64,000 nucleotides of DNA from Nitrospiraceae bacterium. Its GTDB lineage: Bacteria > Nitrospirota > Nitrospiria > Nitrospirales > Nitrospiraceae. Shown here in pieces: positions 33,927 to 61,799 of the stretch; the first letter of the stretch is position 1, and each line of letters starts with the position of its first letter. A model generated the notes under the pieces. The model was given only the letters and a program-made list of their open reading frames with translations. It did not search any database and was not told the origin of the DNA. Made by a program: the position numbers and the translations under genes. The stretch covers positions 64,001 to 128,000 of the forward strand of contig JBFWWG010000010.1 in NCBI GenBank assembly GCA_050246315.1. Direction: 5' to 3'.

Positions 33927-34129
33927 AACGTCCTCATCCCCAAGATCGATGCGCCGGATAAATAAGGAGGGCGTCTGCCGAACTCTCGATTGCGCGCGTC
34001 TAACGAGACAAGAGCCTCGCTTCGTTCTCAAGTCTCGCACGCGACAATCATGACGGGGCTGTGAGCTTCGAGCGCTCACAGCCCCGCCGTTGTCCTCACC
34101 CGATCGAGCCGCTGGCTGTCTCCATAAAA

Positions 34130-34222
34130 CAAGGGCGCCTGTTGTGTTCTCACTGCGCGCATCGATCGAGCGCTCTCTGAAGCGCGGGATCTGCGAGCAC
34201 GAGAACACGGCAGGCGCCCTTG
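34130..34222. repeat. About 90-bp palindromic repeat, copy 2
   Basis: Terminal inverted repeat CAAGGGCGCCTG / CAGGCGCCCTTG. Confidence 0.85.
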
Positions 34223-34239
34223 GTCCGATCCGCGATCGT

Positions 34240-34563
34240 TTATTTGCCGAATGCCTTCTTCAGCAGCGGCTCGATCTCGCCCTTCTTGGCCATCGGATCC
34301 AAAATATCCGTATCCCCATAGAACTGCCCGTCGATGAACACCTTAGGGAGCGTCGGCCAATTGGTCATCTTGTTCAGGGCCTCTCGCTTGGCGGGATTTT
34401 GCAGCACATCGACCACTTCATAGGGGTAGCCATACTTATCAAAGAACTGCATCGTCTCCCGCGTGAACCCGCACATGGGAAACTGCTTGGTGCCCTTCCC
34501 GTACACCAAGATTTTATGGGCTTTGATCTCGCGATCGATCTCGTCTTGAATGGGGTCTGGCAT
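34240..34563 (-). CDS. grxD: Monothiol glutaredoxin (Grx4/GrxD)
   Basis: KGT...PMCGFT, WPTLP; adjacent to bolA. Confidence 0.9.
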   Translation of the reverse strand: MPDPIQDEIDREIKAHKILVYGKGTKQFPMCGFTRETMQFFDKYGYPYEVVDVLQNPAKREALNKMTNWPTLPKVFIDGQFYGDTDILDPMAKKGEIEPLLKKAFGK

Positions 34564-34661
34564 CATCTATCCTCCTGGCTGCTAGTGGGCTGGTACAACC
34601 TCTCTTCGGAGTGCTTCGAAGCGCAGTAGCTCAACAGTGCGAAATGAGAGAAGGCGACCTC

Positions 34662-34890
34662 GCAGAGCGTTTAAAATGGCAGTCCAGCGAGGCCGCAGCA
34701 AGGGAAAAGGCGAGGAGGTACATACCCCACTTCGTGTGAACCAGCGGCTCATCGGGTGAAGCCCCTCCGTATTAACGCCGCTGGAGAAGCCCCTTCAGGG
34801 TTGAGCCTCTTCGCGTTTGACCCACCGCACCAAGAACGGGCCGCAATGGGTGCCCCAACAAAGCTGGCGGACATTTTCAACATCCTGCTA
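34662..34890. mobile_element. MITE-like repeat
   Basis: GTCCAGCGAGGCCGCAGCAAG...AACAAAGCTGGCGG..TTTTCAACAT.CTGCTA, same family as 42613-42743. Confidence 0.7.
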
Positions 34891-35127
34891 AACCTCATCC
34901 GGTGTAGTGGCGCTCAATTCCAGTGCATGGATACGGCCGTCCTTGAGCGGCGCATCCAGCGCCTGATAGATCATCCGGTGCCGATCCAACAAATTCTTCC
35001 CAGAAAAATGCCGGGAGACGATGCGCACGATCAGGTGGTCCATCGTACCGGTCTTATCCGTGACCGTCACGGTCGCGTCCGGCATCGTCTTCCTCACGTA
35101 CTCGGTCAGGGTCTGTGTCGTAATCAT
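34888..35127 (-). CDS. bolA: BolA/IbaG family protein
   Basis: DH, FSGKNLLDRHRMIY, IHAL. Confidence 0.9.
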   Translation of the reverse strand: MITTQTLTEYVRKTMPDATVTVTDKTGTMDHLIVRIVSRHFSGKNLLDRHRMIYQALDAPLKDGRIHALELSATTPDEV

Positions 35128-35271
35128 CTGGTTCCTTCAACGTTCCCACAGAGTTGCAGCACTGACCTTACCGTAACCAGTCCCTGAATCTCAACGCCTC
35201 CACCGAGATGCTCCATCGGCGTTCCGGCCGTCTGATGTTTATCCCATCGGTTTATCCATTCGTCCCAGCAC

Positions 35272-35289
35272 TGTATCGAAGTCGATACA
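35272..35289. promoter_or_regulatory. Palindromic operator / upstream activator site
   Basis: TGTATC-gaagtc-GATACA, about 120 bp upstream of a sigma54 motif. Confidence 0.55.
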
Positions 35290-35407
35290 CTCTAGAATCC
35301 TTCGAATCCCTCCCGCCTTGAATCATAGGATGCATCGATCTTATATGTCATTGAGACATCAATCGTTCCGGCGAAATGGAACCATTGTTCTGCTGGCAGC
35401 GCACCTC

Positions 35408-35422
35408 TGGCATGCAGCTTGC
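35408..35422 (+). promoter_or_regulatory. sigma54 (-24/-12) promoter
   Basis: TGGCATGCAGCTTGC with exact GG-N10-GC spacing. Confidence 0.7.
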
Positions 35423-35503
35423 GCCTCCGACGCCACTATTGGGAGATCGTATCGAAAAGGGGCGATTATGTTGCTGTTGACACTAATCACCCGAAAGGAT
35501 ACG

Positions 35504-36394
35504 ATGATTCAATATCCGGCAGTTAATGATCTGTACTCTCTGTCCGAGCACTTAGGCAAGGCTATTTGGCTTAACAATTGGCGGCAAGGCTTCATGGCTG
35601 CATTCACGGCATACTTTGATGCGAGCGGGCACCAGGAAGACCCTCAAATGCCGTTAGTTTCTGTAGCCGGTTTTATTGCTCCACCGGATGTCTGGAACGA
35701 CTTTGAAGTTAAGTGGAAGGACCGCTTAGCCAAAGATGGCTTAACAGTCTTTCACATGTCTGAATGCGCCAATTGTGAATACGACTTCCAACAGTGGCGA
35801 GCGAGAGAACCCGACCGCCAGAGACTACTTCGAGACCTGCTTGAAATAATTAAGCCGCTAAGTAGAAAGTTCGGCTGCACGGTCCCACTCAAGACATACA
35901 GAGAAAGGCTGGATCTAGAACTGGTAGAGCAATTCAAATTTAAGGCCTACGTTTTGGCCGGTAGAGCCTGTGCCGCCAAAGTCCGTCAATGGTGCGAGCG
36001 TGATGGGGCACCACCACTCTCTCGCATTCAATTTTTCTTTGAACGTGGCGATAACTGGCAGCCAGAACTAAGGGAGAGATTAATGGATGATGGTTTCGGA
36101 GAACCAATATTCAAGCCGAAACGTGACCTATACAGGAACGGAACCCTAGTAGAGCATGGGCTTATCCCGTTTCAAGCCGCAGATGTTCTCGCCTACATCA
36201 CATTTCTGGCACAGAAGTTTTTAATCCAAGGCAGAGATGATTGGGGCGATAAGGAAAGCATTCGATGGGTCTTGGAAGAACTCGAAGAACATAGTGTGCC
36301 TGGATCATTGAACAATTTCACGCCACAAAATCTAGATGGGATTAACTCACTGATGCGTGTGTGCAGTATTGATTTATTGGGTTGGAACGGCTAA
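35504..36394 (+). CDS. DUF3800-like (RNase H-fold) passenger protein
   Basis: AYFDASG, FHM, QAADVLAY; start either 35504 or 35594. Confidence 0.8.
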   Translation: MIQYPAVNDLYSLSEHLGKAIWLNNWRQGFMAAFTAYFDASGHQEDPQMPLVSVAGFIAPPDVWNDFEVKWKDRLAKDGLTVFHMSECANCEYDFQQWRAREPDRQRLLRDLLEIIKPLSRKFGCTVPLKTYRERLDLELVEQFKFKAYVLAGRACAAKVRQWCERDGAPPLSRIQFFFERGDNWQPELRERLMDDGFGEPIFKPKRDLYRNGTLVEHGLIPFQAADVLAYITFLAQKFLIQGRDDWGDKESIRWVLEELEEHSVPGSLNNFTPQNLDGINSLMRVCSIDLLGWNG

Positions 36395-36414
36395 GGCTTC
36401 GAGGATAAAGCTTT

Positions 36415-36549
36415 TTATTTTTTCCTGGCAGGTTGTTGCGAGGGAGCTAGAACACGCTTCACGGCCTTTTTGAATTTCTCAATGTCGGCGTGTTCTAGCT
36501 CTTTTCTGAGTTTGTCGTCGGCGTCTTTTGTAGCGCGGGTGATAGCCAC
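36415..36549 (-). CDS. 44-aa basic ORF downstream of the transposase
   Basis: GTG start, MAITRATKDADDKLRKELEHADIEKFKKAVKRVLAPSQQPARKK*; below the ORF-track cutoff. Confidence 0.55.
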   Translation of the reverse strand: MAITRATKDADDKLRKELEHADIEKFKKAVKRVLAPSQQPARKK

Positions 36550-36581
36550 CCAAGTATTTTAGCGATTCTACCCGAACGTGT

Positions 36582-37484
36582 CTACTTGCCGCTCGTCGTT
36601 AAAAGTTCCATGAAGGCATTCGGGTTCTTACGCATGTTGTGGCGATAGGAAAATTCATTGATATATAAAGGCAAATAATCTTTGGATACATGATGGAACG
36701 ACCCCATAATCCCACGCTTAAACAGGGACCAAAAGCTATCGAGATTGGCAGTATGGACACGCCCTCTGACGTATTCCCCTTTAAAATGGGACACCGATTC
36801 ATGTGGAATCCCTTGCCTCTTCAATCCACGATATCCGGAATAGTCGTCGGTCGCCACCAACGATACGTCCTCCGCTACAGTTTCACGGACAAAGCGTTGG
36901 AGGGTCGCTGCATCAGTCCGTTCAATGGCCTGAGCCACGACCATGCCTTTTCGGGCAATGGCGCCAATGACCGCCACCTTCCCCCATCCCCCAGATACTC
37001 CAAATCTCTTCGACCGATGCCGATTTTTGTCTTTGCCGCCGACATAGGTTTCATCCACTTCGACTTCCCCAGACAATGGCGAGACATCGCCCTTCATGGC
37101 CGAACGCCAACGATGGCACATATACCAAGTGGTGCGGTAATCGGAGCCAGAGTCTTCACCGAAGATAACGCGATGCAACTGCAAGGCGCTAACGCCCTTT
37201 TTCGCAGTGAGCATGAGATAGCCCACCTTAAACCATAGCTTTAAGGGGGTCTTAGTATCTTGAAAAATGGTGCGAGTCAGTATGGAGAAGCGATACCCGC
37301 TCTTCCCGCCACAGTCTATGTTCTTGCAGACCCAATGAAATGACTTTGATTTCAGTCGATAGATTTTCTCAAGTCTCTGACAGCGTGGACAGGTGACGCC
37401 ATTAGGCCATCTTGCTTCGACCAGAAAGGCTTTGCAGGCTTCTTCAGTGGTGAATTGCTTGTCAAAGGCGTCGAGTGTTTGCAT
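36582..37484 (-). CDS. IS1595 family (ISXO2-like) transposase
   Basis: Zn ribbon CPRC...CKNIDC, EVDETYVGG, TDD, HTANLDSFW, YINEFSYRHN. Confidence 0.95.
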   Translation of the reverse strand: MQTLDAFDKQFTTEEACKAFLVEARWPNGVTCPRCQRLEKIYRLKSKSFHWVCKNIDCGGKSGYRFSILTRTIFQDTKTPLKLWFKVGYLMLTAKKGVSALQLHRVIFGEDSGSDYRTTWYMCHRWRSAMKGDVSPLSGEVEVDETYVGGKDKNRHRSKRFGVSGGWGKVAVIGAIARKGMVVAQAIERTDAATLQRFVRETVAEDVSLVATDDYSGYRGLKRQGIPHESVSHFKGEYVRGRVHTANLDSFWSLFKRGIMGSFHHVSKDYLPLYINEFSYRHNMRKNPNAFMELLTTSGK

Positions 37485-37572
37485 GGTCTGTTCTCCTCTA
37501 CGAATAGGAGCAACATACCAAAATCAGTAGAAGGTGTCAATACCAACATAATCACCCGAAAAGGATACGCCG

Positions 37573-37656
37573 ATGATGCTCATGACCTACACAGTGCCGA
37601 TGACCGCCATGTTAATCGGACTCGCGACCTACTGGGTCGTCACCAAACTCTGGTAA
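37573..37656 (+). CDS. 27-aa hydrophobic small protein
   Basis: AAGGA RBS, MMLMTYTVPMTAMLIGLATYWVVTKLW*. Confidence 0.45.
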   Translation: MMLMTYTVPMTAMLIGLATYWVVTKLW

Positions 37657-37921
37657 CCGCGTCCATGATATGGGAGGCGACTCCACGCACACCAAGTTGG
37701 TGGTGGATCTCAACTCCTTTTGGTGGATTTCAACCATGCGACGAAACATGGGGGCCAGCGCGCTTTATAACTCCAATGGATTTCAAGCACGTCGCGCTGA
37801 ACTGGACTCGGCACTGATGTTGCTCAAGGAACTGGTCTTGAAGCCTCGGCGCAGACGAGCCGAAGACAACAACGCTCGAGGGCAGGATGCCATTGATGTC
37901 ACTCACACAAGGAGGGGAACC

Positions 37922-38347
37922 ATGTCAGATGCATTGTTCGGAGCGTCAACAGGAAATGGTCGCGTATTGATCGTCGACGATGAGCCGGACATCAGAAAGG
38001 TCGTCCGGATGACCTTGCAGAAAGCCGGCTACGACGTGCTCGAAGCCGAGAACGGCGAGAAGGCCATCGAGGTCATCAACACGGGCGAGAACCGTCTCAT
38101 GCTCGATGTCCTGGTCTGCGACATCCGCATGCCGAAGATCAACGGCGTGGAGGCCATCGCCTATTTCCGGAAGAACTATACCCGCGTCCCGATCATCGTC
38201 CTGACCGGGTTCCCGGACACCGAGATGGCCGCGACCTTCCTACGCGACGGCGGGATCGTGGACTACCTCGTGAAACCGGTAGAAGGCGAAAAACTCAAAG
38301 CCGCCGTGGCGCGTGCGATGGAGCAACGCGAAGTCGCTTCACTGTAA
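37922..38347 (+). CDS. Single-domain response regulator
   Basis: LIVDDE, CDIRMP, LTG, KP; AGGAGG RBS. Confidence 0.93.
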   Translation: MSDALFGASTGNGRVLIVDDEPDIRKVVRMTLQKAGYDVLEAENGEKAIEVINTGENRLMLDVLVCDIRMPKINGVEAIAYFRKNYTRVPIIVLTGFPDTEMAATFLRDGGIVDYLVKPVEGEKLKAAVARAMEQREVASL

Positions 38348-53991: not shown

Positions 53992-54941
<950 letters not shown>

Positions 54942-54954
54942 CGCCGCCTCCTTG

Positions 54955-55104
54955 GTGAAGCCCGTCCTTGTCCTGATGCGGGCTCGATGGCCCAGGCAAC
55001 TGTTCGGGCTTGTGGTAGGAGGAACGTGACGACCCGGCTCGGCCACGGTCTCTGCGGACCGGAGGCATATCGATCTATCACGTTCCGTGGGTCTCATGTA
55101 TCAC
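54955..55104 (-). ncRNA. Predicted IS110 bridge RNA
   Basis: Two stem-loops with internal loops: GGAACGTGA/TCACGTTCC (55086-55021) and AAGCCCG/CGGGCTT (55011-54958); loop sequences match target and donor. Confidence 0.85.
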
Positions 55105-55367
55105 ACTTTCAAGATACAAGGCATACGTGAAACAGCATGTTGACCGACCGAGCAGCGAGCCCTCCCGCCTGGCCGTGTGAAAACCACGGCCAGGCTTGTC
55201 GTAGCGGCGAATGCACGGTTGCAGTAGAAGTCATCGTGAATAATGCGGATTAGGAGCATACCGCATCGTCGCGCGGACACCATGCGAACTGTTGAGCCGA
55301 CCTGTTGGGATGGAACGATGAATGAACCTTCCGTTGATTTCTTCATCCGAGCCAACGAGCGCGTTTC

Positions 55368-55431
55368 TTCGTATCTGATCCGATACGAGGCCGTATCGGA
55401 TCAGATACGAACGTGTATTGCATCCGATACG
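55368..55431. promoter_or_regulatory. Three tandem YGTATY-N6-GATACG sites; the first two form a perfect 20-bp inverted repeat
   Basis: CGTATCtgatccGATACG (55370), CGTATCggatcaGATACG (55392), TGTATTgcatccGATACG (55414). Confidence 0.65.
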
Positions 55432-55561
55432 GTTACGCATTGCAGAGGTGTGCCGAGGTGTACTCACTCCCCTTCACACGGTTTCCCAAGTCTCGACAAA
55501 TCAGTCAGTTCCATATGTATGCATTTCGCGATTTCTGATTGCCATATTAGAGGATCGACAA

Positions 55562-55577
55562 TGGCAAGATGCTTGCT
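55562..55577 (+). promoter_or_regulatory. sigma54 (-24/-12) promoter of the protease operon
   Basis: TGGCAAGATGCTTGCT, GG-N10-GC. Confidence 0.65.
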
Positions 55578-55830
55578 CACTCCAGCAGCACGCGCATCTC
55601 ACTCACTGGTGCACCGATGGCTCGCAGATGATCTGGTGTGTCCCATCTCGTATTTGTCACATCGCTCAGATACGCATGCTCCTTCACCCTTCGCTAAATA
55701 CGGTGGGAGAGGAAGAATCGGTGATGTGTTCTCGATCACGGTGCCCACCATTGCGCCTGATGTTGCGAGAACAAGCCGGCAAGAGCGCCAAGTTGCGACG
55801 TAGCCGAATCACGAGAAGGAGGTGGTGATA

Positions 55831-56103
55831 GTGCAAGTGATCATTCAGGTTTCCACGGATGTGGCGCTTAAACTTCACCAACGCGCGCCGCCTGCTTCAG
55901 AAACAGAGTCGCTCCTGCGGGTGATCGTGGCATTGGGTCTCACCCTGCAACCAATGCACCCTCATACGAATGATCCTAATCTCCAGCGCTATTTCATTGT
56001 GGAGGTGCTGGACCATGCAACCGCCCAGCAAGTGATGGACCGTCTCAGGCAAGTGCAAGCGGTCGAAGCGGCATATGTTAAGCCGCAAGATGAGTCCCCT
56101 TAA
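55831..56103 (+). CDS. Free-standing subtilisin propeptide-like (inhibitor I9-like) protein
   Basis: AAGGAGGT RBS; LTLQPM...YFIVEV...VEAAYVKP aligns with the prodomain of the next gene. Confidence 0.8.
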   Translation: MQVIIQVSTDVALKLHQRAPPASETESLLRVIVALGLTLQPMHPHTNDPNLQRYFIVEVLDHATAQQVMDRLRQVQAVEAAYVKPQDESP

Positions 56104-56136
56104 CGAGTAGTCGATTAATCAAAAGGAGTGCTGACT

Positions 56137-57948
56137 ATGGCTAAGTCCCCAAGGACAGGAAATCCCGTATCAGCCGGGACTTCACCGCCCCCTGAAGACC
56201 TGATGGGAAAACGTGAACTCGTGATCGTGGGAAAGCGTGAACTCGGCCTGCATGCAAGTAGGGAGGCTGTGGCTTCCGTTACCGGAGCGGATGTTAGTCG
56301 CCTAGCAGAATTACTGACATCCGAAGGAGTCACCTTGGAGCCGTTGTTTGGGATGAGCGAGGAGCGGCTTCAAGCCCAGGCCGCCGCGCTGGCCGCAGAA
56401 ACGGGAGCGGATGTACCCGATCTATCGGTTTACTACCATGTTGAAGCCCCCGATGACCGTCTCGATGCCCTCGCAGAGCGATTTCAGCGGCTAGAGGGGA
56501 TCGAGGCCGCATATGTGAAGCCGGCGGCGGAACCGGCGGAGTTTAGATTCAATGATATGGCTCCACAAACGGGAGAGCCGCCGACACACTCTCCTGATTT
56601 CACAGCACGTCAGGGTTATCTTGGCGCGAGTCCGGTGGGGATCGAAGCCCAGTATGCTTGGACCGTGCCTGGTGGACGTGGCCCTGGGGTCAATATCATC
56701 GACATTGAGTGGGGCTGGCGGTTTACCCACGAAGATTTGACCCAAAATCAAGGGGGCGTGGTCTCAGGAACCAACTCACCTGATGACAACCATGGAACTG
56801 CCGTACTCGGTGAATTCAGCGGCGACCGCAACGCATTCGGCATCACGGGTATCGCCCCGGACGCCCACGCAAGCGCGGTGTCCCTGGTTACGCACAGCAC
56901 AGCGCAAGCCATTCGCATTGCGGCTGACCGGTTGCGGCCGGGAGACATCATCCTGCTGGAAGTACACCGACCAGGCCCTCGGGCGCCGAGTGGGAGCGGC
57001 CAATTCGGTTTCATCGCTATCGAATGGTGGCCCGATGACTTCGATGCGATTCGCTACGCGGTGAGTAAGGGCATCATTGTCGTCGAGGCGGCTGGTAATG
57101 GCGGCCAAAACCTCGACGACCCCGTTTACAACACTCGTCCAGCTGGATTCCCTGCCACTTGGAGAAACCCTTTCAACCCGGCCAATCCCAGTTCCGGAGC
57201 CGTGGTCGCTGGAGCGGGCATGCCTCCTACTGGTACACATGGTAGGAATCGCCACCCCGGTTGGGGAGACGTTTACGCTGACCGGGGGCGCTGCTTCTTT
57301 TCCAACCATGGTGCGAGGGTTGACGCCCAGGGGTGGGGATGGGAGGTGACGACAACTGGTTATGGCGACCTTCAAGGAGGATCTAATCGGAACGAATGGT
57401 ACACTGATCAGTTCAGCGGCACCTCCAGCGCCTCACCTATCGTGGTGGGGACGTTGGCTTCTGTGCAAGGGGTCCTGCGAACCCATGGCAGAATTCCCCT
57501 GAGTCCTGCCAGAGCCATCGAATTACTGCGGGCTACCGGCTCACCTCAACAGGACGGTCCGGCATTTACTTTCATCCCCAACATGACGGGCACTGGATAT
57601 CCACAGAACCATCCGGTCCGTCCAAACACCCAGCGCATCGGCAATCGTCCCAACCTGCGACAACTGATCGCCCGCGCCTTGGATACAAGGATGTGGGTCG
57701 GCGTTCAGTTCACCGGCACGATCCCGGCTAATCAAACTCAGCGTTGGTTCACCTTCAACTGGCCAGCGCATTGGCACGTGGTGTGGACAGTTGTCCCAAC
57801 TAGCCCGCGACTTGGCGCACCACAAATTGAGTGGAAAGTGCAGGTCGAGCGTGCGTCCGATCCGTTCATCACTTACTGGATCAGTATTACAAACCTGACA
57901 CCGGTTCCGGTCACCATCGAAGCACGTTTCGCCGTGCTCGGCTGGTAG
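56137..57948 (+). CDS. S8 subtilisin-like serine protease with C-terminal Trp-rich beta domain
   Basis: IIDIE (Asp), NHGTAV (His), AAGNG, FSGTSSASP (Ser); no signal peptide evident. Confidence 0.93.
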   Translation: MAKSPRTGNPVSAGTSPPPEDLMGKRELVIVGKRELGLHASREAVASVTGADVSRLAELLTSEGVTLEPLFGMSEERLQAQAAALAAETGADVPDLSVYYHVEAPDDRLDALAERFQRLEGIEAAYVKPAAEPAEFRFNDMAPQTGEPPTHSPDFTARQGYLGASPVGIEAQYAWTVPGGRGPGVNIIDIEWGWRFTHEDLTQNQGGVVSGTNSPDDNHGTAVLGEFSGDRNAFGITGIAPDAHASAVSLVTHSTAQAIRIAADRLRPGDIILLEVHRPGPRAPSGSGQFGFIAIEWWPDDFDAIRYAVSKGIIVVEAAGNGGQNLDDPVYNTRPAGFPATWRNPFNPANPSSGAVVAGAGMPPTGTHGRNRHPGWGDVYADRGRCFFSNHGARVDAQGWGWEVTTTGYGDLQGGSNRNEWYTDQFSGTSSASPIVVGTLASVQGVLRTHGRIPLSPARAIELLRATGSPQQDGPAFTFIPNMTGTGYPQNHPVRPNTQRIGNRPNLRQLIARALDTRMWVGVQFTGTIPANQTQRWFTFNWPAHWHVVWTVVPTSPRLGAPQIEWKVQVERASDPFITYWISITNLTPVPVTIEARFAVLGW

Positions 57949-57985
57949 CGCAGCGTGCGATCAATCTTTTGAAAGGAGCACTGTC

Positions 57986-58240
57986 ATGAGAGTCGGAGTG
58001 CAATTTACGGGAACCATTCCAGCAGGAGCTACTAGCCGCTGGTTCACCCACAGCTGGCCGCAGGCATGGCATGTTGCGTGGTACGTCGTGCCCACCTCGC
58101 CGAGGGTCGGCGCACCGCAGATCGAATGGAGCACGGCGGTGGAGCGGGCTTCCAGCACCCATATCACATACTGGATCACGATTAAGAACCTCACCTCGAC
58201 ACCCGTCAATATCGAAGCCCGTTATGCCATATTCAATTGA
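57986..58240 (+). CDS. Free-standing copy of the S8 C-terminal domain
   Basis: VGVQFTGTIPA, RWFT, WP, VVPTSPR.GAPQIEW, VERAS, ITYWI, NLT, IEAR shared with the S8 tail. Confidence 0.9.
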   Translation: MRVGVQFTGTIPAGATSRWFTHSWPQAWHVAWYVVPTSPRVGAPQIEWSTAVERASSTHITYWITIKNLTSTPVNIEARYAIFN

Positions 58241-58252
58241 AAGGAGGCCTCG

Positions 58253-58537
58253 ATGCGCATCATTATTGAACCCGCCGAGCAAGGACGCACGGCAACTCCC
58301 TCATACGAGCCGACACACCCCGTCCATGTGGAAACAGTCGATGGCGGGGCTCCATCTCATACGCTTACACAAACCGTCGAGGAGACACTACCTCTACCAA
58401 TGGCAATGGAGAGAGAAGGAATGAGTGCTGGCTCCCCGCCTGAATGGTTGTTGAAAGCTATCCAGGGCTCAGCGCAACCTTCCACGGCGGGTTCGGGCAT
58501 GGACACCGATGCGGGGAGTGCACCCAACGAGCGATAG
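58253..58537 (+). CDS. 94-aa low-complexity protein with repeated motifs
   Basis: AAGGAGG RBS; DGGAP, SAGSPP, DAGSAP. Confidence 0.8.
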   Translation: MRIIIEPAEQGRTATPSYEPTHPVHVETVDGGAPSHTLTQTVEETLPLPMAMEREGMSAGSPPEWLLKAIQGSAQPSTAGSGMDTDAGSAPNER

Positions 58538-58806
58538 AGAGAGGGACGCATCGAGATAAGGATGGGAGGGCCATCTGCACCGCCAGGAAGACACGGCGAA
58601 TGGGGCCCCGTCATTCCGAATTGATCGGGTGAGGACGACCCGCTGCAGAAGCAGCACGTTCGGGCCTCCAGCGTCTGAGCCGTATGGAAGAGCAGTGAGC
58701 CAGCGTTTCATCCACGGGAGAGGATGGAGAACACACCGTGAAGAAACCAATTACGAAGAAAGCATCGATAATCAGGACACCTCCACAGAAGAAAGGAGCA
58801 AATGCC

Positions 58807-59859
58807 ATGAAGCTAGATGAGACGAAGATGGTGTTGTCGGAGTCGGCCAACGCGGAGGCAAAAAAAGCACAGAGGGCCGCCGAAACCGAGTTCCTGGACC
58901 CCGAGAGGGCTCGGGGCAATGTCGTTGGCATGGGAGTGGGCGTCAAGTGGAAAAATGGGCAGCCCACAGGAGAGCCCGCCCTTGTGGTACTGGTAACCCA
59001 GAAGTTGGAAAAGAGTCAGGTGAGAGCCGCTGACCTCGTGCCAGCCAAATTGGCAGAGATGCAAACCGATGTGCTCACCGTCGGATACCCCTTCGCTGGC
59101 GGCGGGAACGACTCGCTGGAGGTCGGTGCCCAGACGCTGGCTAAACGCATCCGACCGGCGGAAGGCGGCTACAGTGTGGGACATTTTAAGATCACGGCGG
59201 GGACGATCGCCACTTGTGTTTACGATATCTTGCCAGGAGGCTCCATCAGCCCACCAGCGCATGGGATTGGCGTCCCACACCACTACTACATTCTCAGCAA
59301 CAACCATGTTCTGGCGAACAGCAATGCGGCTTCTATTGGCGACCCCATCCTGCAGCCCGGCCCCTTCGACGGCGGCACATTCCCGGCGGATCTCATCGCC
59401 CGCCTAAGCCGGTTCATTCCCATCGACCTAACTCCTGCGGTCCCCCTCGCTCACCACAACAACCTGGTCGATGCCGCTGTGGCCGCAGGGGAGTTCCACG
59501 ATCTGGACAGGGAAATCTATTGGACCGGTTATGTCCGAGGTTGGCGACCGAAAGCACACGTGACGGTCGGGACGATTGTGCAAAAGACTGGGCGTACCAC
59601 GAACTACACAACCGGGCGCATCACAGCAATCAACGCCACTGTCGATGTCAACTATGGTGGTGGGAGGATCGGGCGGTTCAAAGACCAGATCGTGACGACT
59701 AACATCTCAGCTGGCGGTGACTCGGGGTCGTTGGTAACCACACTGGACGATGTGGCAGTGGGGTTACTATATGCGGGTTCTACGGCAGCAACCATCCTCA
59801 ACCAGATTGAAAACGTGCGCGCGCTGCTGCGGGTGGAGGTGGCAGAAACAATAGCGTGA
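58807..59859 (+). CDS. Trypsin-like (Nal1-like) serine protease
   Basis: SNNHVL (His), VDAA (Asp), GDSGS (Ser), KTGRTT; N-terminal NVVGMGVG domain. Confidence 0.9.
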   Translation: MKLDETKMVLSESANAEAKKAQRAAETEFLDPERARGNVVGMGVGVKWKNGQPTGEPALVVLVTQKLEKSQVRAADLVPAKLAEMQTDVLTVGYPFAGGGNDSLEVGAQTLAKRIRPAEGGYSVGHFKITAGTIATCVYDILPGGSISPPAHGIGVPHHYYILSNNHVLANSNAASIGDPILQPGPFDGGTFPADLIARLSRFIPIDLTPAVPLAHHNNLVDAAVAAGEFHDLDREIYWTGYVRGWRPKAHVTVGTIVQKTGRTTNYTTGRITAINATVDVNYGGGRIGRFKDQIVTTNISAGGDSGSLVTTLDDVAVGLLYAGSTAATILNQIENVRALLRVEVAETIA

Positions 59860-60432
59860 GAACTCGAGCAGACAGAGCGGTTGCCTAGGAGCCTGTCTGA
59901 CATTGCCGTTCGTGACGAGGCGAGGGAGGTGCGGTCAGATGCAAGGCCGCAGGCCCGGAAAAACCGGAGGCGTATTCGCTGGAATACGTTGAGGAGTTTT
60001 CCGGGCCGAGAACGACGCAGATGGTTGCACATCGTTCGCCGCAGTAGAAAGGTCAAGGTCAGGCAGACTCCTAGTAAATGAGGCGAGCTGCGGTACGTTC
60101 CGTGCCGGGGGAGATACAAGGTCGTGCAGGTGAGTGGCCTGCCTGAATGGACTCGGTCGGGCTGATGTTTGCCTGACAAGGCGGCATGGCATTGCACATC
60201 GCATGATCAGGACCCTGGCGGCCCTAGGAATGAGAGTGGTAGGATACAAGAGAGTTGATCGAGGCTTGGGGGACTGGCCTGATGCTGTCCTCCAAGCGTC
60301 GAATTCTTGTTGATGGAATCTACCATGGGATGTGCATGGGTTCGCGCAGCGTTCCTTACGCTCCTCGCCTCTCTCGGGCTGACAGAGGGAATTGCGTCGG
60401 AGGGAGGAGAGCCATCCAAGGAGGAAACCGCG

Positions 60433-60678
60433 ATGCCGGATCAGTCACAGGAAGTCGGCCGTCCCAAAGCCACGATCGAGGCCGTCCGAGCTCGCAACGA
60501 AGGTAGTCTGATGGCCATTGAAGGAGTTGTTGGAATTGGGATTGGCCGGACTGCCAGCGGGGACGACGCCGTAGTAATCTACCTGCGTGATGAATCGGTG
60601 CGCCAGCGTGTGCCTGCCGCGATAGAAGGATATCCCCTGGAAATCGTTGTCACTGGCGGGATTGACGCGCAGCGCTGA
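60433..60678 (+). CDS. Free-standing homolog of the trypsin-like protease N-terminal domain
   Basis: GVVGIGIG...AVVIYL...VPAAIEGYPLEIV; AAGGAGG RBS; an upstream start near 60325 would add a signal-like segment. Confidence 0.75.
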   Translation: MPDQSQEVGRPKATIEAVRARNEGSLMAIEGVVGIGIGRTASGDDAVVIYLRDESVRQRVPAAIEGYPLEIVVTGGIDAQR

Positions 60679-60969
60679 GCCGAAAACCCGGAGGCTCCTT
60701 GGCTTTTCACGGGTTGGAGGGTATGGTTTGCCGAAAATCCAGATCGCCAGCAACCGCTCAGGGATGGGTCTTGTGCGCGACGCTCGTTGAGATATCCAGT
60801 GCACACAGGCCCATCATTCCTCCGAACCAGAAAGAGGAAGTCAGAACTAGGCTAGGAGGTCGTCCTTCAATCTGCACAGCACAGTCGAGAAGCCTGATCG
60901 TTCGGACTCCTCAACGAGGTAACCCGCGGTTACTCTCACGACCATCCACCCGGTGGCTAATTCCAAAGA

Positions 60970-61100
60970 TGCCTCCTGCCCCGTTTCTCCGTATCTCATT
61001 CTTGGGGAGCGGCCTGGTTGGTGCCCCATTGCGCGCATCCAACGAGGGCCTTCTCAGGCCGCGCGTTGTGCGAGCACAGGACACCAACCAGGCCGCTCCT
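60970..61100. repeat. Palindromic intergenic repeat
   Basis: GAGCGGCCTGGTTGGTG...TGCGCGCATC...GCGAGCAC...CACCAACCAGGCCGCTC. Confidence 0.7.
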
Positions 61101-61106
61101 CTCCCC

Positions 61107-61466
61107 TTACGTCTCCATCATCTCCAGCCTCGCATCGAACTCATGGCCGCAGGCGGTGCAGCGGATGCAGTCCGACTCGACCGTAAACTCATCGGACCTG
61201 ATGCCCATCCCGCCGCAATCCGAACAGCGGGCCAGGTGGACCTTGCGACCGTCCACCGTCTCATATTGAACACCCCGGAGACAGTAGATCGGTGTTCCAT
61301 CGAGCAGCCACGGCCGGCCCGCATTATCGACGACGGGCAACGCGAGATAGTGATGATTCACATAGTCCTGGATGTCGCGCTGGCTCGTGAACCCGTCACG
61401 GATGAGCTTCCCTCCCACCGCCTCGTAAAGCGCCTGTCCCTTCACGATCGTCTTGGTCGGCCCCAT
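61107..61466 (-). CDS. Hypothetical protein with C-terminal Zn ribbon
   Basis: CSDC...CTAC; GGAGGT RBS. Confidence 0.8.
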   Translation of the reverse strand: MGPTKTIVKGQALYEAVGGKLIRDGFTSQRDIQDYVNHHYLALPVVDNAGRPWLLDGTPIYCLRGVQYETVDGRKVHLARCSDCGGMGIRSDEFTVESDCIRCTACGHEFDARLEMMET

Positions 61467-61799
61467 ATTCCACCTCCCAATCTCGAATAGGGCGTTGATG
61501 CGTGAGTGCGATACGTCTCGAACGAGCGCCAGTGGCCGTCTGCCAGAGGACCGAGCCTCGTTTCGCGGACGATCCAGATTCCGCCTAGCGGTTGGATGTG
61601 ACAATCGAGGGGGACTTGAGACACACAGAGGATCGGTGCACCTCATGGCCCTGGCACCTCCTGCTGTCTTAAGTGGCGAGGAGGCCGATCTTACCCCTGC
61701 TGTATCATAGAGGCAAGATGCCGTTTATGGAGCCGGTTGATCGAGCGCGTGATAACGAGATGACGACTGGACAAGGCATCGAGTAGGCCGACGGAGACC

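Follow-up and report, generated by a model that had tools for sequence, protein, structure and literature searches.

A compact four-gene subtilase cassette with free-standing relatives of both end domains of its protease

Subtilases with a prodomain in cis are textbook enzymes, and a few eukaryotes are known to possess free propeptide-like inhibitors; PBI2 of yeast and POIA1 of Pleurotus are reportedly free-standing inhibitors of MEROPS family I9. A further precedent for a free-standing propeptide-like inhibitor, that of Plasmodium SUB1, is given in the available part of PMC6993865. In the plant serine protease NAL1, according to the available part of PMC12012508, the ATP-binding domain (amino acids (aa) 89–172) builds the trimer interface of a hexameric cage, and the NAL1_N region falls there. 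Here, we describe a locus that can be compared with these systems. It is located in a 64,000-nucleotide stretch of DNA, hereafter the window, from a Nitrospiraceae bacterium (GenBank assembly GCA_050246315.1, contig JBFWWG010000010.1, positions 64,001–128,000 of the forward strand), where six genes, g1–g6, occupy positions 55831–60678. A preliminary description, made from the sequence of the window, treated them as a locus of two proteases, the peptidase family S8 enzyme g2 and the trypsin-like enzyme g5. The conserved unit is instead a compact four-gene S8 cassette, g1-g2-g3-g4, and not a dual-protease locus.

The start codons of g1–g6 were refined by the position of the Shine-Dalgarno sequence, and residue numbers of the S8 protease refer to the 606-aa open reading frame (ORF) from 56128. 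The features of the locus are as follows:

55831..56103, + strand: g1, GTG start, 90 aa, with GAAGGAGG 8 nucleotides (nt) before the start and the C-terminus AAYVKPQDESP
56137..57948, + strand: g2, S8 subtilase, ATG at 56137, 603 aa; the longer ORF from 56128 gives 606 aa
56278..56541, + strand: N-terminal domain of the S8 protease, residues 51–138, homologous to g1, with AAYVKPAAEPA aligned with the end of g1
57694..57945, + strand: C-terminal beta-sandwich domain of the S8 protease (C-domain), residues 523–606, paralogous to g3
57986..58240, + strand: g3, 84 aa, free copy of the S8 C-terminal domain
58253..58537, + strand: g4, 94 aa, predicted to be disordered, with three DAGx(A/P)P motifs
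58807..59859, + strand: g5, 350 aa, trypsin-fold (S1) protease with a NAL1_N-like module
60433..60678, + strand: g6, 81 aa, small beta-rich protein with the motif GVxGVGxG...VYL; AAGGAGG is located 8 nt before the ATG

All six ORFs lie on the + strand in the same orientation, and each start is preceded by a strong AAAGGAG(G) Shine-Dalgarno sequence at a spacing of 6–9 nt. The six co-oriented genes of the preliminary description were recovered, and the start of the 90-aa g1 at GTG 55831 agrees with it. Within g1–g4, the intergenic gaps are 12–37 nt, whereas 269 nt separate g4 from g5 and 573 nt precede g6; this contrast argues for three transcription units rather than one. A promoter and terminator consensus scan of positions 55100–61000 revealed sites no more numerous than in shuffled sequence and is uninformative on the limits of operons. 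No RNA gene was detected in the g1–g6 locus by Rfam and tRNA scans.

A profile search of species-representative genomes with the S8 protease revealed at least 549 relatives, and the best 80 loci were analysed. These loci span at least 11 phyla and two domains of life. The bacterial phyla are Nitrospirota, Pseudomonadota, Bacteroidota, Acidobacteriota, Actinomycetota, Chloroflexota, Cyanobacteriota, Planctomycetota, Armatimonadota, and Methylomirabilota, while Archaea are represented by Halobacteriales, Haloferax, and a Methanotrichaceae metagenome-assembled genome (MAG). Neighbour families were compared using a reduced greedy ORF set, which mis-calls antisense ORFs in GC-rich loci; the counts of g1, g3, and g4 were taken not from this set but from tblastn and hidden Markov model (HMM) searches. 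The S8 protease has the beta-sandwich C-domain in 62 loci and lacks it in the other 18. A free g3 was found downstream of the S8 gene, 15–405 nt past the S8 alignment, in 49 of the 62 loci with the C-domain and in 0 of the 18 without it. Using tblastn with the window g1, a g1 copy was detected upstream in 50 of the 77 loci having upstream DNA (39/60 with the C-domain and 11/17 without). The g1-family HMM found a free-standing g1 in 56 loci; together with the copy of locus L001, which sits in a long stop-to-stop ORF, this makes about 57 of the 77. No further neighbour is common to more than nine of the 80 loci, the larger sets being antisense artefacts or housekeeping genes.

The most faithful partner of the S8 protease is g4. 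A tblastn search with the window g4 found it in only five of the 80 loci, but a single-protein search badly undercounts this gene, and g4 was counted with an iterated HMM seeded with seven sequences. The HMM detected a g4-like ORF in 58 of the 62 loci with the C-domain and in 0 of the 18 without it, and none of 13776 reversed ORFs matched in the control. All 58 g4-like ORFs are on the strand of the S8 gene, and most of them start 5–30 nt past g3, or past the S8 gene if g3 is missing. Since g4 is kept in 12 of the 13 C-domain loci that have no g3, it tracks the C-domain rather than g3.

In Nei-Gojobori comparisons, where dS is saturated in many pairs, the ratio of non-synonymous to synonymous substitution rates (dN/dS) was 0.14–0.35 for g1 (0.30 in the least saturated pair, L066/L070), 0.06–0.09 for the S8 gene, 0.03–0.10 for g3 (0.04 and 0.10 in the least saturated pairs, L016/L025 and L040/L041), and 0.25–0.37 for g4. 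The small ORFs g1, g3, and g4 are therefore under purifying selection. Linkage in other genomes was found for g1 and g3 with the S8 gene across the 80 loci, and not for g5 and g6. Given that the protease is accompanied by free copies of its N- and C-domains, which are conserved and under purifying selection, g1 and g3 may reasonably be taken to act in trans as regulators or adaptors.

A trypsin/NAL1-like gene was noted near the S8 cassette in only four of the 80 loci (L003, L034, L037, and L080) and a g6-like gene in only one, L003, where it is beside the g5-like gene; the survey was anchored on the S8 protease, not on g5 or g6. In L003, a Nitrospira MAG, the gene order is g6'-g5'-g1'-g2'-g3'-g4'. 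Divergent NAL1-like trypsin genes are located on the same strand about 0.3–2.7 kb from the cassette in L034 (Halobacteriales), L037 (Catellatospora), and L080 (Gemmataceae). Thus, the two proteases do not behave as the one obligate system of the preliminary description; g5 and g6 are separate units beside the cassette in this lineage.

That the S8 cassette and the trypsin/NAL1-like protease, with or without g6, nevertheless make up one dual-protease system, for example an activation cascade, seems distinctly unlikely to us. The two modules are adjacent and co-oriented both in the window and in the Nitrospira MAG but reordered, which would be unexpected from the shared ancestry of one arrangement. 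The four lineages with a NAL1-like trypsin near the cassette are independent and seem to be more than chance would give, and 13 of the 141 immediate cassette neighbours carry a peptidase domain. On the other hand, 76 of the 80 loci have no trypsin-like neighbour and 79 have no g6-like gene, and the 269-nt and 573-nt gaps part g5 and g6 from the tightly packed g1–g4. The families of g5 and g6 are large and mostly occur without the S8 cassette in the loci seen, and the relatives of g6 often possess signal peptides, while g5 does not.

As for g5 itself, its Pfam scores are just under the cutoffs both for Trypsin_2 (27.0 bits, cutoff 27.6) and for NAL1_N (25.8 bits, cutoff 27). The best-matching proteins of the PDB are Glu-specific and streptogrisin-type proteases (E 2e-6), and NAL1 (7y77, 8pme) follows at E ~2e-3; by analogy with the latter, g5 may oligomerise like NAL1. 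Its catalytic triad, H190/D245/S329, is invariant in all 16 sequences compared. Among 8000 candidates, 6972 relatives of g5 were found, most of about 349 aa, and many of the close ones carry PF13365 and/or PF25608. PADLOC contains no match for g5.

The g6 family comprises 788 representative relatives, mostly of 75–160 aa, some of which are tandem repeats, and several members have signal or lipoprotein-like N-termini; g6 has no match in Pfam or PADLOC. The resemblance of the last gene to the N-terminal domain of the trypsin-like protease could not be confirmed as stated in the preliminary description. BLASTP of g6 against this domain found nothing, and the comparison of the two families by hhalign gave a weak match (15% probability, E 0.0017), although it aligned to the expected residues 56–109 of g5; Pfam NAL1_N was touched by one of 34 g6-family members (E 1.5e-4). 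Hence, of the claim that every accessory domain of the two proteases also exists as a free gene, the part concerning the N- and C-domains of the S8 protease (g1 and g3) holds, and the part concerning g6 and the g5 N-domain is weak. ATG 60433 is favoured as the start of g6 by the Shine-Dalgarno sequence, and the L003 homologue has no N-terminal extension. An alternative upstream start, TTG 60307 or ATG 60313, would add MGCAWVRAAFLTLLASLGL (60307–60432), a signal-peptide-like segment with a hydropathy of 2.19. Modules of the g6 type also occur in long tandem arrays, with 11 matched stretches in P0241 (2889 aa), 10 in P0284 (583 aa), and four in P0309 (493 aa); P0284 matches the Pfam DUF5650 repeats, and P0309 has a signal peptide.

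The assignment of g2 to peptidase family S8 is based on the Pfam profile PF00082 (Peptidase_S8), which matches residues 216–448 with 44 bits against a cutoff of 21.8. A profile of 12 S8 relatives matches solved subtilisins in the PDB at E 7e-10 and weaker, and 5707 relatives were recognised among the 8000 candidates scored. The triad D192/H222/S433 and the oxyanion residue N324 are invariant in the 12 aligned sequences (the window S8 and 11 relatives); the motifs, assigned by eye, are IIDIEWG for D192, NHGTAV for H222, AAGNGG for N324, and SGTSSASP for S433. Both catalytic triads of the locus are therefore intact, as had been noted before, and the same applies to the remark that neither protease shows a signal peptide. 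The latter was checked by a crude hydropathy test rather than by a signal-peptide predictor: any 10-mer with a Kyte-Doolittle value of at least 2.0 in the first 45 residues was sought. Such a segment was found in 0/12 S8, 0/16 g5, and 0/30 g3 sequences and was also absent from the window g4, while five signal-bearing g6-family proteins, used as a positive contrast, scored 2.3–2.9. A cytoplasmic location of the S8 protease is suggested by this result. From N- to C-terminus, the enzyme consists of a ferredoxin-like domain, a subtilase core whose catalytic residues are intact, and a small beta-sandwich.

The S8 protease’s N-terminal region (about residues 53–135) shares 24% identity with g1 over 84 columns in BLASTP (E 3e-6). 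Profile–profile comparison of the two families by hhalign places g1 onto S8 residues 51–138 with a probability of 98.6% (E 1.1e-15), so the match reported in the preliminary description is upheld. The AlphaFold2 (AF2) model of g1 (predicted local distance difference test (pLDDT) 90) has a beta-alpha-alpha-beta-beta-alpha-beta order and forms an alpha+beta sandwich of the ferredoxin-like kind, from which a floppy C-terminal tail extends. A Foldseek search of the PDB with this model yielded ribosomal protein S6, ACT domains, and NapD at E ~7e-3 and a template-modelling (TM) score of ~0.5. In 23 of 30 aligned g1 relatives, the stop follows directly after the conserved Pro of AYxKPxxExP. In the S8 protease, residues A128, Y129, V130, K131, P132, and E135 are invariant at the position aligned with the C-terminus of g1, and the variable linker begins there. 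The prodomain reading of g1 is drawn from these two features, the location of the N-domain before the catalytic core and the end of g1 relatives at the junction of N-domain and linker.

Two further observations concern g1. The stop-to-stop ORFs holding the g1 homologue in L036, L044, L050, L017, and L029 reach upstream into lipoprotein- or signal-peptide-like segments, e.g., MRRGLASFAWLLLASMFVACA; these extensions depend on the choice of start codon. In addition, both g1 (56080–56100, KPQDESP) and g4 (58510–58534, TDAGSAPNER) end within a few residues of a motif of the acidic-x-x-Pro type, which is conserved in both families. That the two tails might address the same site of the protease is pure conjecture.

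At the other end of the S8 protease, residues 524–605 are identical to g3 at 57 of 82 positions (70%, E 1e-37), and g3 is indeed the close copy of the last ~84 residues that had been described. Its AF2 model (pLDDT 92) is a six-stranded beta-sandwich. A fold search with this model gave no PDB match below E 0.1 (best E 0.11), and naming the fold was rejected, the hits being only generic beta-sandwiches (GOLD domain and YPM, TM 0.67–0.68). The nearest named Atlas clusters are H-type lectins, at 0.85 and 0.83, which is below the 0.9 level and was counted as a lead only. The free-standing relatives of g3 fall into 2093 clusters (90% identity), nearly all of them exactly 84 aa long, and in none of these clusters was a Pfam domain or a name beyond ‘hypothetical protein’ found. 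Like g3, neither g1 nor g4 has a match in Pfam (for g1, above the cutoff), NCBIfam, or PADLOC, in agreement with the earlier statement that the locus is not a recognised named system.

Paralogy of g3 and the C-domain was judged from identity matrices and a crude neighbour-joining (NJ) tree, which do not resolve whether g3 arose once. The nearest neighbour belongs to the same class (g3 or C-domain) for 108 of 113 sequences. Identity among g3 sequences exceeds that between g3 and the C-domain in 1802 of 2450 ordered locus pairs, and identity among C-domains exceeds that between the C-domain and g3 in 2286 of 2450. Only in one of 50 loci is the C-domain of the same locus nearer to g3 than all other g3 sequences. 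Because the sequences group by class and the own-locus pair is so rarely the nearest, the duplication is old, with both copies kept, rather than a recent copying. A predicted complex of S8 residues 140–606 with g3 scored 0.06 against a mark of 0.32, which counts neither for nor against binding.

The C-terminal module is swapped in close S8 relatives (70–83% identity), in which the N-domain and core are kept; the modules found in its place are DUF5648 repeats, DUF346 repeats, BTRD1 repeats, and CarboxypepD_reg. Given that the core and N-domain stay while the modules differ, and that g3 and g4 are gone from the 18 loci without the beta-sandwich, the C-terminal position acts as a slot for exchangeable binding modules, to one of which g3 and g4 belong.

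These modules bear on the possibility that the enzyme is an ordinary secreted or surface degradative subtilase, in which the C-module would anchor it to a polymer, g1 would serve in the cytoplasm as a safety inhibitor or foldase, and g3 and g4 would be accessories of export or anchoring. The swap partners are binding repeats (those of DUF346 being tectonin-like), the lectin clusters are the nearest named ones to g3, secreted-type proteases such as an M4 enzyme with an FTP propeptide occur among the neighbours, and a few g1-relative ORFs (L036, L044, L050, and L017) have lipoprotein-like N-terminal extensions. We consider this explanation unlikely. No signal peptide was seen in the 12 S8 sequences, the 30 g3 sequences, or the window g4, no conserved exporter gene was found near the cassette, and the signal-less architecture is alike in archaea and in diderm and monoderm bacteria.

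The protein g4 consists of short conserved motifs, namely an N-terminal M(R/K)IxIE and three DAGx(A/P)P, the central one being DAGxPPxWLxxAI, which are separated by hypervariable, low-complexity spacers rich in A/S/T/G/P. The Atlas model of the window g4 is disordered (pLDDT 0.27), and no amphipathic or membrane segment was found in this protein (maximum hydropathy 0.27). The preliminary description is silent on g4.

Cyanobactin precursors, which have repeated recognition sequences, are matured by S8 proteases. By the same logic, g4 could be a multi-site precursor peptide cut by the S8 protease at DAGxPP, similar to a ribosomally synthesised and post-translationally modified peptide (RiPP) or a pheromone, the beta-sandwich being the recognition element. 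The alternation of conserved short motifs with hypervariable segments, the tight translational coupling, and the strict co-occurrence of g4 with the docking domain would suit such a precursor. However, the cassette has no conserved modifying enzyme or exporter; the S8 protease scores 9.9 bits with the cyanobactin PatA/PatG profile (NCBIfam TIGR03895), whose cutoff is 421, and the variable segments of g4 are of low complexity. This role of g4 is, in our opinion, highly improbable.

We propose another scheme, to which we give about an even chance: the S8 protease is latent and probably cytoplasmic, g1 is a prodomain-like regulator in trans, the C-domain docks g4, and g3 is a free docking paralogue. 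According to this scheme, the S8 protease would be made latent in the cytoplasm, with its N-domain serving as a prodomain-type lid or a folding aid. Ending at the AYxKPxxExP junction of N-domain and linker, g1 would mimic a released prodomain and hold or re-inhibit the protease in trans. The C-terminal beta-sandwich would be a docking (exosite) module for g4, and g4 a dedicated substrate or pseudosubstrate regulator of the enzyme. By binding the same motifs of g4, g3 might titrate it or co-assemble with the S8 protease on the multi-motif g4 chain.

Several observations weigh against this proposal. The preliminary description appealed to the I9 inhibitors, but Pfam Inhibitor_I9 (PF05922) matched neither the window g1 nor the S8 protease, and it matched 0 of 30 g1 relatives at E <= 1. 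A PDB profile search did not find a propeptide, and no subtilase propeptide is among the 50 Foldseek PDB matches listed for the g1 model. For these reasons, g1 and the S8 N-domain were not assigned to I9. Weak matches to the ACT_4 profile were noted in seven of the 30 g1 relatives (best E 5e-5), although the window g1 stays below the cutoff (18.4 bits, cutoff 27); the ACT domains matched by Foldseek have TM scores of 0.39–0.59. As an alternative to a prodomain, the N-domain could pair with g1 and sense a ligand in the manner of ACT domains. The sole argument for the docking of g4 on the beta-sandwich is their co-occurrence. Neither g1 nor g3 is indispensable, since g1 is missing in about a quarter of the loci, including the haloarchaeal ones, and g3 in 13 of 62. 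In the crude identity-based NJ tree, the g3 and C-domain classes are not cleanly split (best bipartition F 0.69). Finally, DUF5648, the tectonin-like DUF346, and CarboxypepD_reg are common in extracellular proteins, and their presence in close relatives is more in keeping with secretion of the enzyme than with a cytoplasmic location.

The distribution of the cassette is patchy. The S8 proteases of Thiomonas, Lunatibacter, and the Methanotrichaceae MAG are 76–78% identical to that of the window, and plasmid copies are present on the Haloferax mediterranei megaplasmid pHME505 (59.7% identity) and on a Nostoc plasmid. This level of identity across domains and the megaplasmid copies indicate that the cassette was spread by horizontal transfer. 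Many S8 relatives with ~46% identity and without the C-domain are found on plasmids of the Bacillus cereus group. Phage records contain only four distant S8 matches, none of which covers 80% of the query. In the pHME505 record, an ‘S8 family peptidase’ is followed by an 84-aa ‘hypothetical protein’, the g3 homologue. The g4-like ORF after it (L081:7023-7679, HMM E 1.7e-13) is represented in the gene table by only a 50-aa 3' coding sequence, and g4 is probably mis-annotated or missing in this PLSDB gene table, which is known to be incomplete.

In the window, remains of an insertion sequence (IS) are located about 730 nt upstream of g1:

53992..55097, - strand: IS110-family transposase, two overlapping ORFs (257 aa and 126 aa)

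It was identified by NCBIfam transpos_IS110 (155.7 bits, cutoff 140; residues 5–247 correspond to profile positions 63–342), and since it is split into two ORFs, the transposase is probably frameshifted or decayed. Elsewhere in the window, the GC content at 34001–38000 is 0.49–0.54, compared with ~0.61 in the flanks, and this stretch may be a foreign island. The sole RNA gene detected in the window is a tRNA-Ala (GGC) at 1600–1675 on the + strand.

The patchy cross-domain spread, plasmid copies, IS remnant, and protease neighbours, together with the analogy to protease-effector defence modules, suggest a conflict or stress role for the cassette. A specific form of this idea is an immune or conflict module like Pepco/EACC1, in which the C-module of the S8 protease would be a sensor, g4 (or g3) an effector or signal released by cleavage, and g1 a safety catch. 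The mobility described above, a protease core fused to swappable binding modules, which parallels ‘protease fused to diverse sensors’, and the caspase, CHAT, or trypsin neighbours in some loci speak for it; moreover, small unnamed proteins beside defence proteases are known cleavage-activated effectors, according to the available part of bioRxiv 10.1101/2025.11.14.688446. We still regard this form as doubtful. In PADLOC-DB 2.0, the proteins of the locus have only noise-level matches (TniQ_V at E 0.04 for the S8 protease), as does a nearby ORF at 61107–61646 (PDC-S64, E 0.014). No conserved STAND protein, nucleoside triphosphatase (NTPase), or known sensor was found nearby, the neighbours scanned being mostly metabolic or regulatory. 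It would be odd for a universal effector to follow the beta-sandwich instead of the protease core, as g4 does (0/18 in the variants); moreover, g4 lacks any amphipathic or membrane segment, and the phage records hold just the four distant matches.

The peptidase domains in the 13 neighbours are of the astacin/M10 type in three cases, a second S8 in four, and caspase, CHAT, M4 (the enzyme with the FTP propeptide), S51, A24, and trypsin-like, which suggests a loose tendency of the cassette to sit beside other proteases. Adjoining the cassette are astacin/matrixin-like zinc proteases (HExxHxxxxxH) and a caspase-domain protein with zinc ribbons (L004:11079-12221, L012:1329-2210, L069:6635-7600, and L002:4674-5807), and no obvious signal peptide was found in these four neighbour proteins. 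A tyrosinase gene with PPO1_DWL and DUF7868 is located directly upstream of the cassette in a Chloroflexota genome (L073:6395-7984) and in a Gemmataceae genome (L080:5966-7516), and a B. thuringiensis plasmid encodes a ‘tyrosinase family protein’ close to three clustered S8 genes (L082:12513-13362). Removal of a C-terminal domain by proteolysis activates latent tyrosinases, and the S8 protease might activate the adjacent tyrosinase in these loci. Downstream of the cassette in the Nitrospira MAG (L003:11102-12644), there are three consecutive ORFs of 161–176 aa, which look like paralogues by eye (SLLxxGLxPTFYxFxEATxEVTMD).

Both end domains of a prokaryotic subtilase thus exist as separate, strongly conserved genes, and a further gene, g4, tracks one of these domains almost perfectly. 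The families of g1, g3, and g4 are unnamed, small in protein size, and without a Pfam domain, but large in number, as the clusters of g3 alone demonstrate, and even a reference haloarchaeal megaplasmid has g4 only partly annotated. If the proposed scheme is correct, the cassette would be a clean natural example of an enzyme regulated by paralogues of its own domains. A bolder version, to which we give only a small chance, is that g1–g4 are a widespread ‘self-paralogue’ protease switch, in which the free lid and docking domains would rival the enzyme’s own domains in binding to the enzyme and to g4. If these free proteins were lost or captured, for example upon infection or stress, g4 would then be cleaved with consequences for cell fate, and the cassette would represent a new class of proteolysis-gated conflict module, horizontally spread in Bacteria and Archaea and sometimes recruiting a second, NAL1-like protease. 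The cassette is small and self-contained and occurs in tractable hosts (Haloferax and Streptomyces), so that its latency and purpose are directly testable.

When comparing the locus with known systems, the closest likeness of g1 is to the free subtilisin propeptide-like inhibitors: it is small, separate, and homologous to the protease’s own N-domain, which makes it a candidate inhibitor or chaperone in trans. Unlike those inhibitors, g1 and the S8 N-domain fail the Pfam Inhibitor_I9 profile and match no solved propeptide, and g1 is prokaryotic and encoded in the same operon as an enzyme that keeps its own N-domain. In g5, a trypsin-fold core and a NAL1_N module appear to be combined as in the cage-forming NAL1; g5 is, however, bacterial, about 350 aa long, and devoid of the plant N- and C-terminal extensions, and its likeness to NAL1 stays below the Pfam cutoff and at E ~2e-3 in the PDB.

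Small unnamed proteins beside a protease core fused to swappable modules are a trait shared with Pepco/Trypco1-2 and EACC1, as these are presented in the available parts of bioRxiv 10.1101/2025.11.14.688446 and PMC7159879, and dedicated cleavage of a small neighbour may, by analogy, be common to such modules and to our scheme for the cassette. In contrast to Pepco/Trypco/EACC1, g3, g4, and g6 have no Pfam or PADLOC match, the cassette has no NTPase or STAND partner, and two of the small proteins are paralogues of the protease’s own domains, a feature that the available parts of these sources do not describe. The effector-associated domains (EADs), homotypic adaptors described in the available part of PMC7159879, offer another parallel, as an effector enzyme and a separate protein of the same locus have one small domain in common, which might point to homotypic pairing here as well. 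Unlike EADs, which in that part link effectors to NTPase cores, the second copy in the cassette is a bare domain with nothing attached. No description of the g1–g4 cassette was found in the literature searched, and the terms subtilisin, Peptidase_S8, and subtilase have 0 occurrences in the supplements of PMC7159879. The cassette differs from the nearest known logic in that it is prokaryotic, both end domains of its protease are duplicated, g1 falls outside I9 by sequence, and g4 is present as a partner.

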